From contig JAPDJW010000003.1 of the NCBI GenBank assembly GCA_029258885.1, forward strand, positions 1-64,000: a DNA stretch of 64,000 bases. Reading direction: 5' to 3'. The notes beneath the pieces were generated by a model that was not told where the DNA came from, did not search any database, and was given only the letters and a program-made list of their open reading frames with translations. Source of the DNA: Thermoproteota archaeon (GTDB taxonomy: Archaea; Thermoproteota; Thermoprotei; Thermofilales; B9-G17). A program made the translations under genes and the position numbers. Shown in pieces: positions 972 to 6,661 of this stretch. Positions within the stretch are counted from its first letter, which is position 1; each line of letters starts with the position of its first letter.

Positions 972-2297
972 CTACCTGACTACGTAATACGTTTTTGCGC
1001 CTCTATTTCTCCTGCTTACTAGCCCTAGTTTCTCCAGCCTCTTTAGTCTAGCTACAACTGATGTTTTTGAAAGGCCTACCTGCTTAGCTATTTCACTACT
1101 CCTAGCTCTACCCAGCGTACTAATTACATCCAGTATCTCCCTATCCTTTTCGTCGAGCAGATCCTCTACATCTCCTTTTTTCTCGAAAATAACCTCCGTA
1201 TAGTAAGGCTGTATATTAAATTTAAGCTCGACTAGCGGATGTTCCCTACAAGCCTGTTTCATCCTATAGATGCCAGTGCCCCACTTCTCAATGTACCCTA
1301 TATCGTATAGGTACTGACATAGCAAGGGATTTCTCGGTACATGACGGGGATTATCCGGTGTAACCCCAGGCGGGAAGCTCCCTGGATTCTTTACAATAAT
1401 TTTATCGGGAATTATGAATACTTGGACTTCAGCTGGTATCAGGTAGTTCCTATGAGCTAGTGCATTAGTTATAGCCTCCCTTAATGCATCTACCGGATAC
1501 TCGTACAGCTCTATCCTCCTCCACCTAACTCCCCTTATAGGTATCCTAGCAAGGTTCATCCTAAAGTACTCCTCCAGTTCATCTATTATCCTCCATACAG
1601 GACCTTCAACGAACCTATGGTACGCTACCCTAGACATATCCCTATCCAAGAATTTTACTAGATGGATGCGTGCCCATGGAACATACTTGGAGGGATTTTC
1701 GCTGAAGAATAGCAGACCTGCGCCGCTTAGAAATTCCTCATTATTCTTCGAAACTATGATATTGAGTTTCCTAGCTATATCCAGGAAATCTCCGTAGCTC
1801 CTAACGTTCCTGACGTTCTCCCTAGTTTCAAGGAACCATTTAAGTATGTTTAAGTCTAACTCGCTTACTGGAGCGGCGCTAGGAGCTCTATCGAAGAAAT
1901 AGAGCACAGCCTCAGCGGCTCTCTCAAGCAGTTCATTTAAATCTAGAGGCCTAACGTTCCTACCCACCCTAACGTATGCGATGTACCTGAAGGTATGTAT
2001 CTTATCGCTCTTAGGAACCCTAATTAAATACACTTCCCTACCTTCAATAGTAACCCTATCCACTTTAACGCTTATATGCGGCACAATATTTAGGAGAACA
2101 TCAGAAAGCTTCTGCACTACACCCTCCTCAACCCCAACCACATTACCGTCATCATCCACGCCAATAAGTATCACGCCCCCCTCAGTATTAGCAAAAGCCA
2201 CTATATCCCTCCCTATATCTGAGGTAATTTTTCTTTTAAACTCTACAGTATCCCCCTCACCCAGCCTAATAAGCTCCAATACCTCAAGCAGGCTCAA
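972..2297 (-). CDS. Schlafen/AlbA_2 domain + HATPase_c_4 (RecG C-terminal-like) + C-terminal winged HTH protein
   Basis: GEGDTVEFKR...DIVAFANTEGGVILIGVDDDG (AlbA_2); ALREAITNALAHRNY and NPLL...L..IGYIEKWGTGI (HATPase_c_4); SEIAKQVGLSKTSVVARLKRL (wHTH). Confidence 0.85.
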   Translation of the reverse strand: MSLLEVLELIRLGEGDTVEFKRKITSDIGRDIVAFANTEGGVILIGVDDDGNVVGVEEGVVQKLSDVLLNIVPHISVKVDRVTIEGREVYLIRVPKSDKIHTFRYIAYVRVGRNVRPLDLNELLERAAEAVLYFFDRAPSAAPVSELDLNILKWFLETRENVRNVRSYGDFLDIARKLNIIVSKNNEEFLSGAGLLFFSENPSKYVPWARIHLVKFLDRDMSRVAYHRFVEGPVWRIIDELEEYFRMNLARIPIRGVRWRRIELYEYPVDALREAITNALAHRNYLIPAEVQVFIIPDKIIVKNPGSFPPGVTPDNPRHVPRNPLLCQYLYDIGYIEKWGTGIYRMKQACREHPLVELKFNIQPYYTEVIFEKKGDVEDLLDEKDREILDVISTLGRARSSEIAKQVGLSKTSVVARLKRLEKLGLVSRRNRGAKTYYVVR

Positions 2298-2474: not shown

Positions 2475-3815
2475 TCAATCTTCCGTCTCCCTTATGCAGG
2501 TAAATTTTCCTGAAACTTTAAGGATCTTCCGCCTGCCAACATATTCACTTACAACGTAGCCTAGCCTCTCAAGCTCTCTAACATGAAGATATACTGCTGT
2601 TTTCGAGATATTTAATCCCCTCTCCCTAAGGCTCTTCCAAAGTGAATAAACATGCTGAGGCTTACGAGATAATATTTCAAGGATTAACTTCTTAGTCCCT
2701 CTGATCATAACGTTTCTTTCAAGGCTAGATAGAGCCTTAACAAGAGACCTAGGATTCTTCAAACCAGCACCAGTCGCAAGCACTACAACAGTATCCTTAG
2801 AATCTATCTCACCCTCTTCAAGAAGCTTCTTAAATGCGCTAAACGCAGCTGCACCAGCTGGCTCAACAAGTATACCTTCATACCTTGCAAGATCCCTTAA
2901 TGCCTCAATAATATCCATACTACTTACGGGTACTATCCTGCCACCAGTATCTCTCGATACCTTTATTGCCTCATCACCCATATAAGGCCTCCTCTCATTT
3001 ATCTCCACAGCAATACCCTTCCTACATTCTCTACGATCAATATTCTGAAACCTGTAGGCCAACGGCGCACATACATCCTCCTGAACACCATATAGCCTAG
3101 GAAAATCATCAATTACATTTAATTCCCGGAGCTCGTGAAAGCCTTTCCAGATAGAATATATTAAGCAGCCGTTACCAACAGGAACAACTATGGAATCAGG
3201 AACCTTAAACTCTAGGTCTTCATATATTTCAAAGGATAGAGTCTTATATCCCTCGATTAGAAACGGATCAGCCGGATAAACGCTGTAGTATGGAGCTATT
3301 TTCCTTTCGTCTGAAAGTATCTCGCCACCGTAAAGCAGTATCTGATAAAGCTTCCCCCTATCTATGTGACCCCTAATCTTCACATAGCACTTTATTCCGG
3401 AGAGACTTGAATATGCACTGAGCGAAGCTGCCAGATTACCCTTAGCTTCACAGAATACACGTTTATAGCCAAAGTGTTTCAACATTGAAACTAGTACGGT
3501 TGAGCCCCTATCTATAAATGATCCTGTAGGATTCCTTGTTTCATCCTTTATATACAGCTTCTCAACCCTAAACTTACGGCTTAATCTAAAGCTACGTATA
3601 AGCGGAGTTCTTCCTTCTCCAAGCGAGTATGCTTCAGTTAAAGGCAACTTTATCATGCAGGTATATTTCCATATACCGGGCAGTTTATCATCCGGCTTAA
3701 ATCCCACCTCATCCGCGTCGTAAAGGATCCTCATGTTGCCGCCGCATATAGGACATCGCGCTAGAGGTCTCTTAATATCATCCGTAAAGCCGCATTTAAA
3801 ACATCTATACTGCAT
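2475..3815 (-). CDS. Threonine synthase-like (PLP fold II) domain lacking the catalytic Lys, fused to a C-terminal winged HTH; probable transcription regulator
   Basis: N-terminal CxxC..CxxC, SLGEGRTPL, KDETRNPTGSFIDRG (canonical SFKDRG), GNLAASLSAY, VPVGNG, EPAGAAA, TGAGLK; C-terminal KKLILEILSRKPQHVYSLWK...ISKTAVYLHVRELERLGYV wHTH. Confidence 0.85.
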   Translation of the reverse strand: MQYRCFKCGFTDDIKRPLARCPICGGNMRILYDADEVGFKPDDKLPGIWKYTCMIKLPLTEAYSLGEGRTPLIRSFRLSRKFRVEKLYIKDETRNPTGSFIDRGSTVLVSMLKHFGYKRVFCEAKGNLAASLSAYSSLSGIKCYVKIRGHIDRGKLYQILLYGGEILSDERKIAPYYSVYPADPFLIEGYKTLSFEIYEDLEFKVPDSIVVPVGNGCLIYSIWKGFHELRELNVIDDFPRLYGVQEDVCAPLAYRFQNIDRRECRKGIAVEINERRPYMGDEAIKVSRDTGGRIVPVSSMDIIEALRDLARYEGILVEPAGAAAFSAFKKLLEEGEIDSKDTVVVLATGAGLKNPRSLVKALSSLERNVMIRGTKKLILEILSRKPQHVYSLWKSLRERGLNISKTAVYLHVRELERLGYVVSEYVGRRKILKVSGKFTCIRETED

Positions 3816-3818
3816 ATG

Positions 3819-3835
3819 TATTTAAGACTTAAATA
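3819..3835. promoter_or_regulatory. Perfect palindrome TATTTAAG-A-CTTAAATA in the divergent promoter region; candidate operator
   Basis: 8-bp arms, 1-nt spacer; begins 4 nt upstream of the ThrC-wHTH start codon and ends 44 nt before the ECF S-component start. Confidence 0.55.
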
Positions 3836-3878
3836 TTAAAATAAATACTACGCTTACCTAATTGATAACCGTGAGAGT

Positions 3879-4742
3879 ATGAGTAATCTCCACGTGTTCT
3901 GCCTTACAGTCCTGCTGTTATCGGCTGTTATGATAATTTCACTTTATGATGTCAGCGGCGGCTTCATCGAGAAGATAAGCTTAACTAGTAAAGAGAAAAA
4001 CTCGATTAGCCTGCTAGTTATATTGTTGCTTTCATCAATAGCGTTAAATCTTACCGTGATTTTCCTCGAACTACGTGAGCACAGAGGATATATTCCAACA
4101 GCTTCATTAGCACTATTCTGTACAACCGCCATATCATTCGTATACTACTTTGTGACGTTCAGGAGCCTTTATTCCTTACTTCTTCTACCTTTAATGGCCA
4201 TTTTTATAGTAGCCTATCTACGAAGTAGAAGTGAAGGTATCAGATTTTTCTCCTTGAACACTAAGGAGATATCTCTCATAGCTGTGCTATCCTCGCTTAC
4301 AGCAGTACTAACATCCGTAGTTGGATCAGTATTTCCATCACCTACGGGAGGTTATACCCATATAGGCGACACGATAATATTTCTAGCTGGACTAATGTTC
4401 GGATCCAAGGTAGGCTTCTTCACAGGATCTATTGGAGCAATGGTAGCAGACATTATAGTAGGCTATCCCAGATGGTACGTATCTATAGTAGCCCATGGGC
4501 TAGAAGGGTTTATAGCGGGCTTAGCTAAGAATAAGCGCACAGGAACTCAAGTTCTAACATTGGCTGTAGCTGGAATAGTTATGGCTTTAACATACTATAT
4601 CGTCAATATCTACATTAAAGGATATGCTCCTGCATTTATATCCTTATTAAGGGACGTGTTCGGCCAGGCTGGAGTCTCGCTAATACTATCAATACTTATA
4701 TATAAAAATATGGAGAAAACGGGTTTAATAGGCCGTATCTAA
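3879..4742 (+). CDS. ECF transporter S-component (HmpT/PdxU-like) with an extra N-terminal membrane domain
   Basis: PSPTGGYTHIGDTIIFLAGLMFGSKVGFFTGSIGAMVADIIVGY and HGLEGFIAG are typical of this S-component class; about 125 extra hydrophobic N-terminal residues. Confidence 0.8.
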   Translation: MSNLHVFCLTVLLLSAVMIISLYDVSGGFIEKISLTSKEKNSISLLVILLLSSIALNLTVIFLELREHRGYIPTASLALFCTTAISFVYYFVTFRSLYSLLLLPLMAIFIVAYLRSRSEGIRFFSLNTKEISLIAVLSSLTAVLTSVVGSVFPSPTGGYTHIGDTIIFLAGLMFGSKVGFFTGSIGAMVADIIVGYPRWYVSIVAHGLEGFIAGLAKNKRTGTQVLTLAVAGIVMALTYYIVNIYIKGYAPAFISLLRDVFGQAGVSLILSILIYKNMEKTGLIGRI

Positions 4743-5488
4743 TGTTTGTACATAGTCATCTTATAGACTGCGATTAGGGATAATGATAGAACTAGTATCG
4801 TTAAGCATATTTCAAGCCACTTTGGTTTAGCTTTAAGCGATATTCTACTCCCAATTCTCGCGCCTAACATTGATCCGATCGTCGTCGAGATAGCTGGCAG
4901 CCAGATAACGTTTCCACGATACCAGTAGATAAGTATAGCCATTGTAGCCGTGAATATCGTTGAAAAGAGGGACGTAGCGATGGCTCTACGTATATCTAGC
5001 TTCATCATCCTTAAAAACGGCGGAAAGAGTGATCCACCACTTCCTCCCCTCATTCCAGTGATAAGGTTCAGTATGAAGGCACCAGCTACTATTAGCTGTG
5101 GAGTCGGATTTATCCTTTCATACGTCCTCGGAGCTATCTTGTAGAGGTACATTCCAAATATCGTTATCAGCGAGCTGGCAAGAAAGAGTATCGCTAAGAC
5201 GACTTTCGAGACAAGTCCTACGAGTAGAGCTCCAGTCATCGAACCCAGGCATCCCCCTATAACCACATATAAGCCGGTCTTAGCATCCACGTTTCTCCTA
5301 TGGCTTATCGCTCCAACGATCGAAGAGAACGGTATCACGATTAAATTAATGGCAAAGGCGCTTAACGGTGGAATGCCTACAAGTATCAGCAGGGGAGTCC
5401 TTACGGAGCCTCCTCCAATACCAAATATACCGCTCATACAGCCAGCCAATACACCTATGATAAAGCATGCAATCAACATAGGATCCAT
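4739..5488 (-). CDS. Sulfite exporter TauE/SafE family protein
   Basis: SGIFGIGGGSVRTPLL, second repeat GMRGGSGGSLFPP, RRAIATSL, GSMLGARIG; about 8 TM segments. Confidence 0.88.
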   Translation of the reverse strand: MDPMLIACFIIGVLAGCMSGIFGIGGGSVRTPLLILVGIPPLSAFAINLIVIPFSSIVGAISHRRNVDAKTGLYVVIGGCLGSMTGALLVGLVSKVVLAILFLASSLITIFGMYLYKIAPRTYERINPTPQLIVAGAFILNLITGMRGGSGGSLFPPFLRMMKLDIRRAIATSLFSTIFTATMAILIYWYRGNVIWLPAISTTIGSMLGARIGSRISLKAKPKWLEICLTILVLSLSLIAVYKMTMYKH

Positions 5489-6012
5489 ACTAGAGCACCT
5501 TCATCCATCCACTTAGTATTATACAAAAATTTTGTGTAAATGCACATAAATATAAGCTTTTTCACTTAAAACTTTCTTAATCAGCCGTGAAGTTCCTCCA
5601 AGAGGTCCTAATGCAGACAATATATGTTTAGCAAAATGTCGTTAAACTTAGAACGACAACATTATCAAGATAAAGAGTTATCTCATACAATGGACATAGT
5701 ATATTGTTATTCCATAGAATTTCCTAACGGCTTTATGGGCACAATAAGCTTTTCAATAAAATGTATTAACACTTACCTTCAGGCAAATCTTAACTTATAA
5801 ATGCTACTAGAAAGCCCAGGATCATATACTACATTATACTAAATGCAGAGTAAAGAATATCTATGGTGGATCAGTTCGTATAGGAGATAACTTCATCGAG
5901 ATATTGCCCGAAAAACCTAAGGTATCCACGAGTTTTAATCTAATGAAGATGCAATGTATGATTAATAATCTAGTAGAAAAAATATATATATAGTATTTTT
6001 ATTACATGATTA

Positions 6013-6246
6013 ATGAAGCGGGTCAAGGTTGTTAGAAACTATCAAATCACGATTCCCTCTGAAATTAGAAAAGCTATCGGAATCGAAGTAGGTGACGTTC
6101 TTCTAATAAACGTTGTCGATAATAAAATAATATTGGAAAAGGTTAAGGATGATCTTCCAACTTTTAAGGTAGGAAAAAGGATAGAGGAGAAGGATATTGA
6201 GGAAGCACTACTTAAAGGGCTGAAGAGAAGCATAGTTGGTGGTTAA
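6013..6246 (+). CDS. vapB: AbrB/MazE/SpoVT-family antitoxin (VapB), pair 1
   Basis: KVVRNYQITIPSEIRKAIGIEVGD AbrB motif; overlaps the downstream PIN gene. Confidence 0.88.
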   Translation: MKRVKVVRNYQITIPSEIRKAIGIEVGDVLLINVVDNKIILEKVKDDLPTFKVGKRIEEKDIEEALLKGLKRSIVGG

Positions 6247-6661
6247 ATTGATAGCTGTCATTGATTCGAACGTTTACGTATATAGGGCTATAAAAGACGC
6301 AATCTATCATATTCAATCGAAAAATGTGTTAGATAAATTATCTCAGTGGCTAACGCCAAGCATAGTAATACATGAGGTGGTTTGGACATTGAATGAGCTT
6401 ATAGGCAGACAATCTACACTACTCTATGTTAAGGCGCTGCTTTCACATAGAAAGATGAATATTATCCCATTATCAAGGCAGGATATTTCTTGGAGCATAG
6501 GGAAAATCGCTGAGGAAGCGTTATCGCTGGCCAGGTACAATAATAAAATAATTTTATCTATAGCCAAAAGGAAAAATACTCCATTAGTCAGCTTTGATAA
6601 GCAACTTCTTTCTCAGGCATCAAAAGAAGGAATAGCGATAATAAATCCGTATTTAACTTAA
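6236..6661 (+). CDS. vapC: PIN-domain toxin (VapC), pair 1; third acidic residue replaced by Asn
   Basis: VIDSNV, VIHEVV, RYNNK (expected YND), SFDKQL. Confidence 0.85.
   Translation: MVVKLIAVIDSNVYVYRAIKDAIYHIQSKNVLDKLSQWLTPSIVIHEVVWTLNELIGRQSTLLYVKALLSHRKMNIIPLSRQDISWSIGKIAEEALSLARYNNKIILSIAKRKNTPLVSFDKQLLSQASKEGIAIINPYLT

Follow-up and report, generated by a model that had tools for sequence, protein, structure and literature searches.

A putative vitamin B6-responsive regulator derived from threonine synthase, divergent from an ECF transporter gene, in a Thermoproteota archaeon

The first 64,000 nucleotides (positions 1 to 64,000, forward strand) of contig JAPDJW010000003.1 (assembly GCA_029258885.1, a Thermoproteota archaeon), referred to below as the window, contain a pair of divergently transcribed genes, P0001 and P0002. 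P0001 encodes a protein in which a threonine synthase (ThrC)-like domain is fused to a winged helix-turn-helix (wHTH) domain, and P0002 encodes an S-component of an energy-coupling factor (ECF) transporter. We consider it probable that the two genes make up a vitamin B6-responsive, autoregulated uptake switch, with P0001 being a transcription factor derived from a duplicated archaeal threonine synthase. A broader proposal seems to us evenly balanced between right and wrong: that P0001 represents the first archaeal family of B6-responsive transcription factors, controlling pdxST and uptake genes via an operator that is shared across phyla and that has been rewired to a new geometry in this vent archaeon, a B6 auxotroph whose B6 entry it would gate, and that a PurM-superfamily gene accompanying many of these loci encodes a B6 salvage enzyme. 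New at the window itself are a candidate operator of variant form, accompanied by a change in the recognition helix, a long S-component partner and an auxotrophic context. An earlier note on this DNA had described the divergent pair, a 63-nt spacer and a perfect palindrome at 3819-3835, all of which are present where they were placed:

2475-3815, minus strand: regulator gene P0001, 446 aa (zinc ribbon, ThrC-fold sensor domain lacking the Lys, and C-terminal PadR-type wHTH)
2523-2696, minus strand: PadR-type wHTH, residues ~374-431 (Pfam PF03551)
2769-3626, minus strand: PALP domain (fold-type II, ThrC-like), residues 64-349, with the Ile101 codon at 3513-3515
3744-3803, minus strand: N-terminal C4 zinc ribbon, residues 5-24 (cysteines C5, C8, C21 and C24)
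3816-3878: divergent promoter region of 63 nt, common to regulator and transporter
3819-3835: candidate operator, the perfect palindrome TATTTAAG-A-CTTAAATA
3836-3848: AT-rich block TTAAAATAAATAC, likely the shared TATA region (read from the sequence)
3879-4742, plus strand: ECF S-component gene P0002, 287 aa (PF07155/COG4720, HmpT-PdxU2-like class)
3879-4253, plus strand: N-terminal extension of P0002, with four hydrophobic segments
4254-4739, plus strand: S-core of P0002

In P0001, the PALP domain (PF00291) matched at E 3.9e-59 over residues 64-349, and residues 378-426 of the tail passed the Pfam PadR profile (PF03551; 28.9 bits, cutoff 27). The best sequence matches of the tail in the PDB are the PadR-like proteins 4ejo and 3elk, and most homologues of P0001 carry a precomputed PF03551 annotation. 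At the N-terminus, a CxxC...CxxC arrangement gave weak matches to Pfam zinc ribbons; the four cysteines are invariant in the family alignment, and the ribbon is also found in true archaeal ThrCs. Solved ThrC structures align with P0001 at E 1e-42 to 1e-47. Two NCBIfam threonine synthase models score below their cutoffs, PRK05638, which runs the full length of the protein (293.9 bits, cutoff 421), and TIGR00260 (142.3 bits, cutoff 167.1).

To describe the active site, 114 fusion proteins were aligned with 15 true ThrCs, and residues were numbered as in Thermus thermophilus ThrC, the numbering being verified by alignment. The ThrC motif PTGSFKDR reads NPTGSFIDR in P0001, where Ile101 aligns with the Schiff-base lysine, K61. 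Together with K61, residues T88, N154, S155, R160 and N191 are replaced in the fusions (the ThrC residue is retained in 0-4% of the 114), and P0001 has L128, Y180, P181 and L186 at the positions of T88, N154, S155 and R160. F60, N87, G187 and T317 plus most structural residues are retained. At P0001 position 152, 103 fusions out of the 114 have a fusion-specific Asp and the others Glu or Asn, and the phosphate loop of P0001 is partly altered (GNGCL vs GNAGN in ThrC). In the T. thermophilus ThrC structures, we take T88, N154, S155 and R160 to be the ligands of the substrate phosphate, and F60, N87, the Gly loop and T317 to hold the pyridoxal 5'-phosphate (PLP) cofactor. On these presumed roles and the retention pattern, the O-phosphohomoserine site would have been dismantled, and much of the cofactor site would have remained under selection.

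These changes bear on the possibility that P0001 is still an enzyme, either a divergent PLP-dependent one or a PLP-independent one, with its wHTH serving some other purpose. Databases do name its homologues threonine synthase, and one fusion subclade in the Bathyarchaeia keeps the Lys. However, P0001 has lost not only the Lys but also the substrate-phosphate site and some of the phosphate loop, a complete ThrC (a normal protein of 385 aa with Lys) is encoded in the same genome, as is an IlvA-like dehydratase, and the gene is associated with a conserved DNA motif in different phyla. We regard a surviving enzymatic role as highly improbable, and the sequence features point to P0001 acting as a transcription factor.

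The fusion is not peculiar to this genome. About 110 of the 120 best database matches are PALP+PadR fusions of 440-500 aa without the Lys, which is replaced by I, L, V, M, F, R or T; among the same 120, matches of ~400 aa without a wHTH keep it. Species-representative genomes yielded 80 loci from the Bathyarchaeia, Nitrososphaerota, Thor-, Hermod-, Odin- and Jord-archaeia, Methanomethylicota, Hadarchaeota and Desulfurococcaceae. A tree of the PALP cores sets the fusions apart from true ThrCs as a near-monophyletic group with two main clades. One has a hydrophobic residue at the Lys position and includes P0001; the other has Arg, and a subclade with Lys is nested in it. This Lys subclade is from the Bathyarchaeia (L035, L051, L056, L059, L062, L073, L077-L079 and L086); as it sits inside the Arg-type clade, some of its members may bind PLP covalently, like MocR proteins.

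Linkage between the fusion genes and S-component genes, which the earlier note had made decisive for its proposal, proved to be widespread. Synteny was scored in 76 non-redundant fusion loci, adjacency being defined as an S-component gene within 150 nt, and a PF07155 S-component was adjacent in 51 of them, across several phyla. The adjacent S gene lies divergent upstream in 14 loci, downstream on the same strand in 34 and downstream on the opposite strand in 3; the 14 divergent loci belong to the hydrophobic clade, as P0001 does. Two further loci have an S-component within 3.5 kb of the fusion gene, and 7 of the 23 loci without one nearby end at contig edges. In L009, a complete S-EcfA-EcfA'-EcfT operon is divergent from the regulator. 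For P0002, such a module is available elsewhere in the host genome (2.10 Mb, 99.9% complete), where an EcfA-EcfA'-EcfT module at C2:434851-437260 is made up of a pair of ABC ATPase genes together with one gene of the CbiQ family (87.8 bits).

The fusion gene is also linked to the genes of B6 synthesis. L048 is a tight operon of the regulator, pdxS, pdxT and a PurM-superfamily gene, L076 has the order pdxS-pdxT-regulator, and the regulator is divergent from pdxS in L030, G141 and G170. At the genome level, PdxS was found in only 2 of the 51 genomes whose regulator adjoins an S gene; of the regulator genomes lacking such a neighbour, 21 were searched and 6 had PdxS. It scored above the cutoff in 70 of 150 phylum genomes (47%) that are at least 90% complete; among these same 150, it was present in 5 of 43 regulator-positive genomes vs 65 of 107 others. 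Because related genomes are not independent, we give this complementarity the weight of a strong trend rather than of a formal test. Neither PdxS nor PdxJ was found in the 99.9% complete genome that hosts P0001 and P0002.

The PurM-superfamily gene (AIRS/AIRS_C domains, referred to here as AIRS-like) was observed after the S gene in 24 of the 76 loci, and in L048 it follows pdxS-pdxT. Examples lie at C5:4756-5763(-) in the host genome, L058:2303-3310 and L048:9045-10052. We tried to assign it as ThiL or HypE and rejected both, as its scores are far under the cutoffs (94-113 bits against the ThiL model, cutoff 184) and both a distinct ThiL and a candidate HypE exist alongside it. The gene might instead encode the missing enzyme of B6 salvage, such as a non-orthologous B6 kinase.

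A DNA motif is conserved at these loci. In about 20 of them, ATATATAAG-N6-CCTATATATAGG occurs upstream of the regulator and ends 11-13 nt before its ATG; read towards the target gene, the canonical operator is CCTATATATAGG-N6-CTTATATAT. This composite site sits between the regulator gene and the TATA-like element of the target, and it precedes S genes as well as pdxS. It was also found before pdxS on contigs other than that of the regulator, as a perfect copy in L113 and as near-copies in L114 and L107. The perfect 12-mer is single-copy in the four genomes tested. In a search for a wider regulon in five genomes other than the host, copies with 1 mismatch were no more frequent than the control.

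The palindrome in the window departs from this consensus. The earlier note had made its conservation among archaeal homologues a test of the proposal: the family does possess a conserved operator, but the window palindrome is not of the canonical type and is shared only with the closest relative, L010 (53% protein identity, with a canonical-type S partner). There, the aligned element is TATTCAAG-A-CTTTAATA, which keeps 14 of the 17 palindrome positions within a conserved block of ~30 nt, although the flanks differ in length and sequence and the element lies 13 nt further from the ATG than in the window. In the window, the palindrome is 3 nt from the regulator ATG. The two halves of the palindrome are similar to the canonical half-sites TATATAAG and CCTATATA, with a spacer of 1 nt vs 6 nt. 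The recognition helix of the regulator differs as well, reading YLHV in P0001 vs YQHL in the family; L006-L008 have K or R at the altered position, and L010 keeps Q. The palindrome is probably a lineage variant of the operator, with half-sites TATTWAAG separated by 1 nt, accompanied by a Q-to-L change in the recognition helix. A related regulator without an adjacent S gene, L007, has a direct repeat of TATTAAACTTAT at ~3950-4000, the copies being ~22 nt apart and the second abutting the ATG, possibly a further form of the operator in the clade of P0001.

The arrangement of the spacer is consistent with such a role. The order is regulator ATG, palindrome, AT-rich TATA-like block, ~31 nt and S-gene ATG, which matches the canonical locus L118. 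The minus strand has TATTTATT at -30 to -23 relative to the regulator ATG, and on the plus strand the AT-rich block lies ~31-43 nt before the S-gene ATG; because this agrees with archaeal promoter geometry, the block at 3836-3848 is likely to be a TATA region shared by both promoters.

A simpler explanation is that the palindrome is merely a symmetric, AT-rich element of the TATA/BRE (TFB recognition element) type, the true operator lying elsewhere or being absent. The site is AT-rich and TATA-like, its spacing is N1 rather than the canonical N6, it is common to one independent relative only, and a position weight matrix (PWM) built from 18 canonical sites finds no canonical site in its place. 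Contigs from four metagenome studies offer no help, as they are ~99% identical over 3500-4200 with 7 variable sites, none of them in the spacer, too little variation for footprinting. On the other hand, 352 perfect palindromes of the form 8-N(0-4)-8 occur in the 2.1 Mb of the genome, so that only ~0.01 would be expected per 63 nt, and with up to 1 mismatch this one occurs once in the genome. The resemblance of its half-sites to the canonical ones, the retention of 14 positions in L010 amid differing flanks, the order relative to the ATG and TATA region as in L118, and the parallel change in the recognition helix also speak for an operator. We therefore think a plain promoter element unlikely, though it is the alternative to which we give the most weight. 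Allowing up to 2 mismatches, 5 other sites were found in the genome vs 4 for a reversed control, which gives no indication of a wider regulon. The sole perfect CCTATATATAGG in the host genome, at C5:66341, is inside a coding frame and was treated as a chance occurrence.

The transporter gene was examined in the same way. PF07155 covers residues 126-280 of P0002 (90.5 bits, cutoff 26.7). The earlier note had placed the protein in the HmpT/PdxU class, and the sequence matches to solved structures agree: its only S-component relative in the PDB is Lactobacillus brevis HmpT/PdxU2 (4HZU chain S, E 1.6e-10), and a profile of the long subfamily matched only the same protein (E 7.9e-14). Structures of RibU, ThiT, FolT and BioY were not detected with P0002 or the subfamily profile at E values up to 10. 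A reading of PF07155 as RibU was considered and rejected, since archaeal RibU belongs to COG3601 (PMC5397151) and no RibU structure was matched. The pocket of HmpT is formed by E41, W76, H84, Q87, Y120, S136, N140 and Q143 (PMC4860826). P0002 is identical at W76, H84, Y120 and S136, and at Q143 only after a 1-residue shift; the other changes are conservative (E41D, Q87E and N140D). The commoner S-type among the partners of these regulators differs at several of the HmpT pocket positions and has a long internal insertion that P0002 lacks. That P0002 transports a B6 vitamer is a prediction with indirect support, from the family-wide co-regulation with pdxST and from the absence of PdxS.

P0002 has ~125 extra residues at its N-terminus. 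About 100 of its 120 best homologues have this long form (287-324 aa), and 17 are core-only (159-201 aa); because the long form predominates, the start at 3879, and with it the 63-nt spacer, holds. A fusion regulator adjoins 2 of 4 sampled S genes of the long subfamily. Of the long-type S loci, L117 and L118 have perfect canonical operators, and L119 has a degenerate one.

As the effector, the earlier proposal had named a B6 vitamer or a phospho-amino acid such as O-phosphohomoserine. The first is supported by the pdxST operons, by the operator at distant pdxS genes and by the near-exclusion of PdxS; the second is unlikely because the positions that we take to bind the substrate phosphate are replaced family-wide. 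A regulator that senses O-phosphohomoserine or threonine and controls an amino-acid-related importer would be in line with the ThrC fold (E 1e-47) and with eight loci of one Bathyarchaeia lineage (L025, L027, L034, L040, L046, L049, L052 and L054) in which a true thrC is divergent from the regulator, several of them also having hom, an ACT-domain gene and ilvD nearby. However, T88, N154, S155 and R160, to which we assign phosphate binding, are retained in only 0-4% of the family, and what recurs beside the regulator is pdxST or a gene for a PdxU2-like S-component rather than threonine genes. Adjacency to thrC is confined to those eight loci of a single lineage and would be expected if the regulator arose through a tandem duplication of thrC. 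We consider threonine-related sensing to be very improbable.

Only slightly less improbable, in our judgment, is that the system serves uptake of hydroxymethylpyrimidine (HMP), with the pseudoenzyme sensing HMP-phosphate or a PLP-like pyrimidine related to thiamine. ThiC was not found in the host genome, proteins of the HmpT class were first predicted to be HMP carriers (PMC4860826), and the AIRS-like gene that often follows the S gene belongs to the PurM superfamily and has weak similarity to ThiL. Several observations favor B6 instead: family members reside inside pdxS-pdxT operons, and the operator precedes pdxS; as a control, ThiC was found in 15 of 40 regulator genomes, and PdxS in 4 of the same 40; and the AIRS-like gene is not ThiL, as Bathyarchaeial genomes carry a separate ThiL above the cutoff. 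In the host genome, moreover, genes for an NCS1-type permease, a 457-aa ThiD-like protein and a small membrane protein are clustered at C5:126482-129699; this cluster looks like a thiamine-pyrimidine salvage locus, a separate pyrimidine route that could serve HMP salvage.

Several points weigh against a B6 switch operating at this locus. The phyletic counts cover related genomes, many of them metagenome-assembled, and hence are non-independent. As the host also lacks ThiC, its own gene content cannot separate uptake of B6 from that of HMP. The support for the palindrome as an operator comes from one relative with 53% identity, from its uniqueness in the genome and from its position, and the score of the canonical PWM is about -10 within the spacer and no higher than 17.7 elsewhere in the genome, whereas its training sites score at least 27.9. 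PLP binding by the Lys-less pocket, with its partly altered phosphate loop, is a prediction. RNA data sets were checked for the locus, and none was listed as containing it. P0002 has H161, H206 and S255 where 52-53 of 54 partner S-components have N, K and E. Finally, the host genome possesses a canonical-type S gene at C5:~5775-6500(-) that is unlinked to the regulator. This second S-component belongs to PF07155, shares 37% identity with the partner in L009, including the long internal insertion in its sequence, and is followed by the AIRS-like gene of contig C5; no operator-like site was recognised upstream of its operon.

With these points in mind, a B6-responsive switch could have arisen and could function as follows. 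A duplicated archaeal threonine synthase would have lost its Schiff-base Lys and substrate-phosphate site and gained a PadR-type wHTH, while its descendant P0001 would have retained the contacts to the PLP ring and part of those to the PLP phosphate. The Lys-less pocket might then reversibly bind PLP, or the phosphate of another B6 vitamer, as an effector. A P0001 dimer would occupy the palindrome at 3819-3835, which lies between the regulator's own TATA region (-30 to -23) and its leaderless start; because of this position, we infer autorepression. The palindrome also borders the transporter promoter on its BRE/TATA side, from which the same dimer might control the S promoter. Occupancy would follow the B6 status of the cell and tune uptake via P0002 and the shared EcfAA'T module. 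Two signs of control can be envisaged: the PLP-bound form might repress, or the apo form might activate the target while repressing its own gene, as in bacterial PdxR.

Downstream of the regulator and on the same strand, at 972-2297(-) in the window, a gene with a TTG start encodes a 441-aa protein with AlbA_2 (Schlafen-like), HATPase_c_4 and C-terminal wHTH domains, which is probably unrelated to the B6 system. On the other side, a TauE/SafE-family membrane protein gene at 4739-5488(-) converges on the S gene, their ends overlapping by 4 nt. In the relative L004, a TauE gene is 3.5 kb from the regulator, and its presence probably reflects lineage synteny only.

Full-text literature searches returned no report of such a regulator family, and no description of a B6 regulator for Archaea was found in the searchable literature. 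A recent survey states that B6 transporters and alternative B6 kinases remain to be identified in most prokaryotes (PMC9997740). If the B6 switch is correct: many archaeal "threonine synthase" genes would have to be re-annotated as regulators; two archaeal subfamilies of PF07155 S-components could be assigned to B6 uptake; possession of the pair would mark lineages of Bathyarchaeia, Asgard archaea and Thermoproteota as B6 auxotrophs, a point of relevance to the media used for their cultivation; direct tests could start from an operator motif and from a candidate for a new family of B6 enzymes; and a dead PLP enzyme serving as a PLP sensor would represent convergence with bacterial PdxR.

Among the known proteins closest to P0001 are the archaeal zinc-ribbon ThrCs (EC 4.2.3.1), with which it has in common the ribbon, the PALP fold, 35-40% identity, and many structural and PLP-ring contacts; it differs in having neither the Schiff-base Lys nor a recognisable substrate-phosphate site, in the added wHTH and in scoring below the family cutoffs. 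P0002, for its part, falls in the same Pfam family as HmpT/PdxU2 of L. brevis (4HZU chain S; PMC4860826) and PdxU (PF07155, COG4720; PMC9997740). It has the DxxxGYPxW and H..(Q/E)G motifs in common with HmpT/PdxU2, and its pocket residues are in part identical and in part conservatively changed, whereas its N-terminal addition of ~125 residues is absent there and three of its pocket positions are more acidic.

As a regulatory system, the pair resembles RbkR, the archaeal riboflavin kinase/regulator, in joining an archaeal enzyme domain to a wHTH. RbkR controls vitamin synthesis genes in prototrophs and the ECF gene ribU in auxotrophs, recognizes palindromes of 16-20 bp and autoregulates (PMC5397151). 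The fold and the vitamin are different, however, and RbkR retains enzymatic activity, whereas the ThrC-like domain of P0001 looks catalytically dead. The other parallel is with the bacterial PdxR/MocR regulators, which consist of a GntR-type wHTH and a fold-type I aminotransferase-like domain, so that in both cases the fold of a PLP enzyme is fused to a wHTH as the sensor; PdxR/MocR proteins control pdxST and B6 uptake genes (PdxU), autoregulate and have their operators in divergent promoters (PMC5320631). P0001 gave no GntR or Aminotran_1_2 matches and hence is not a member of the MocR/PdxR group. MocR proteins keep the PLP lysine, which most members of the P0001 family, P0001 included, do not have. 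Neither domain is homologous between the two: the archaeal family combines a fold-type II ThrC domain with a PadR domain, in the reversed order.

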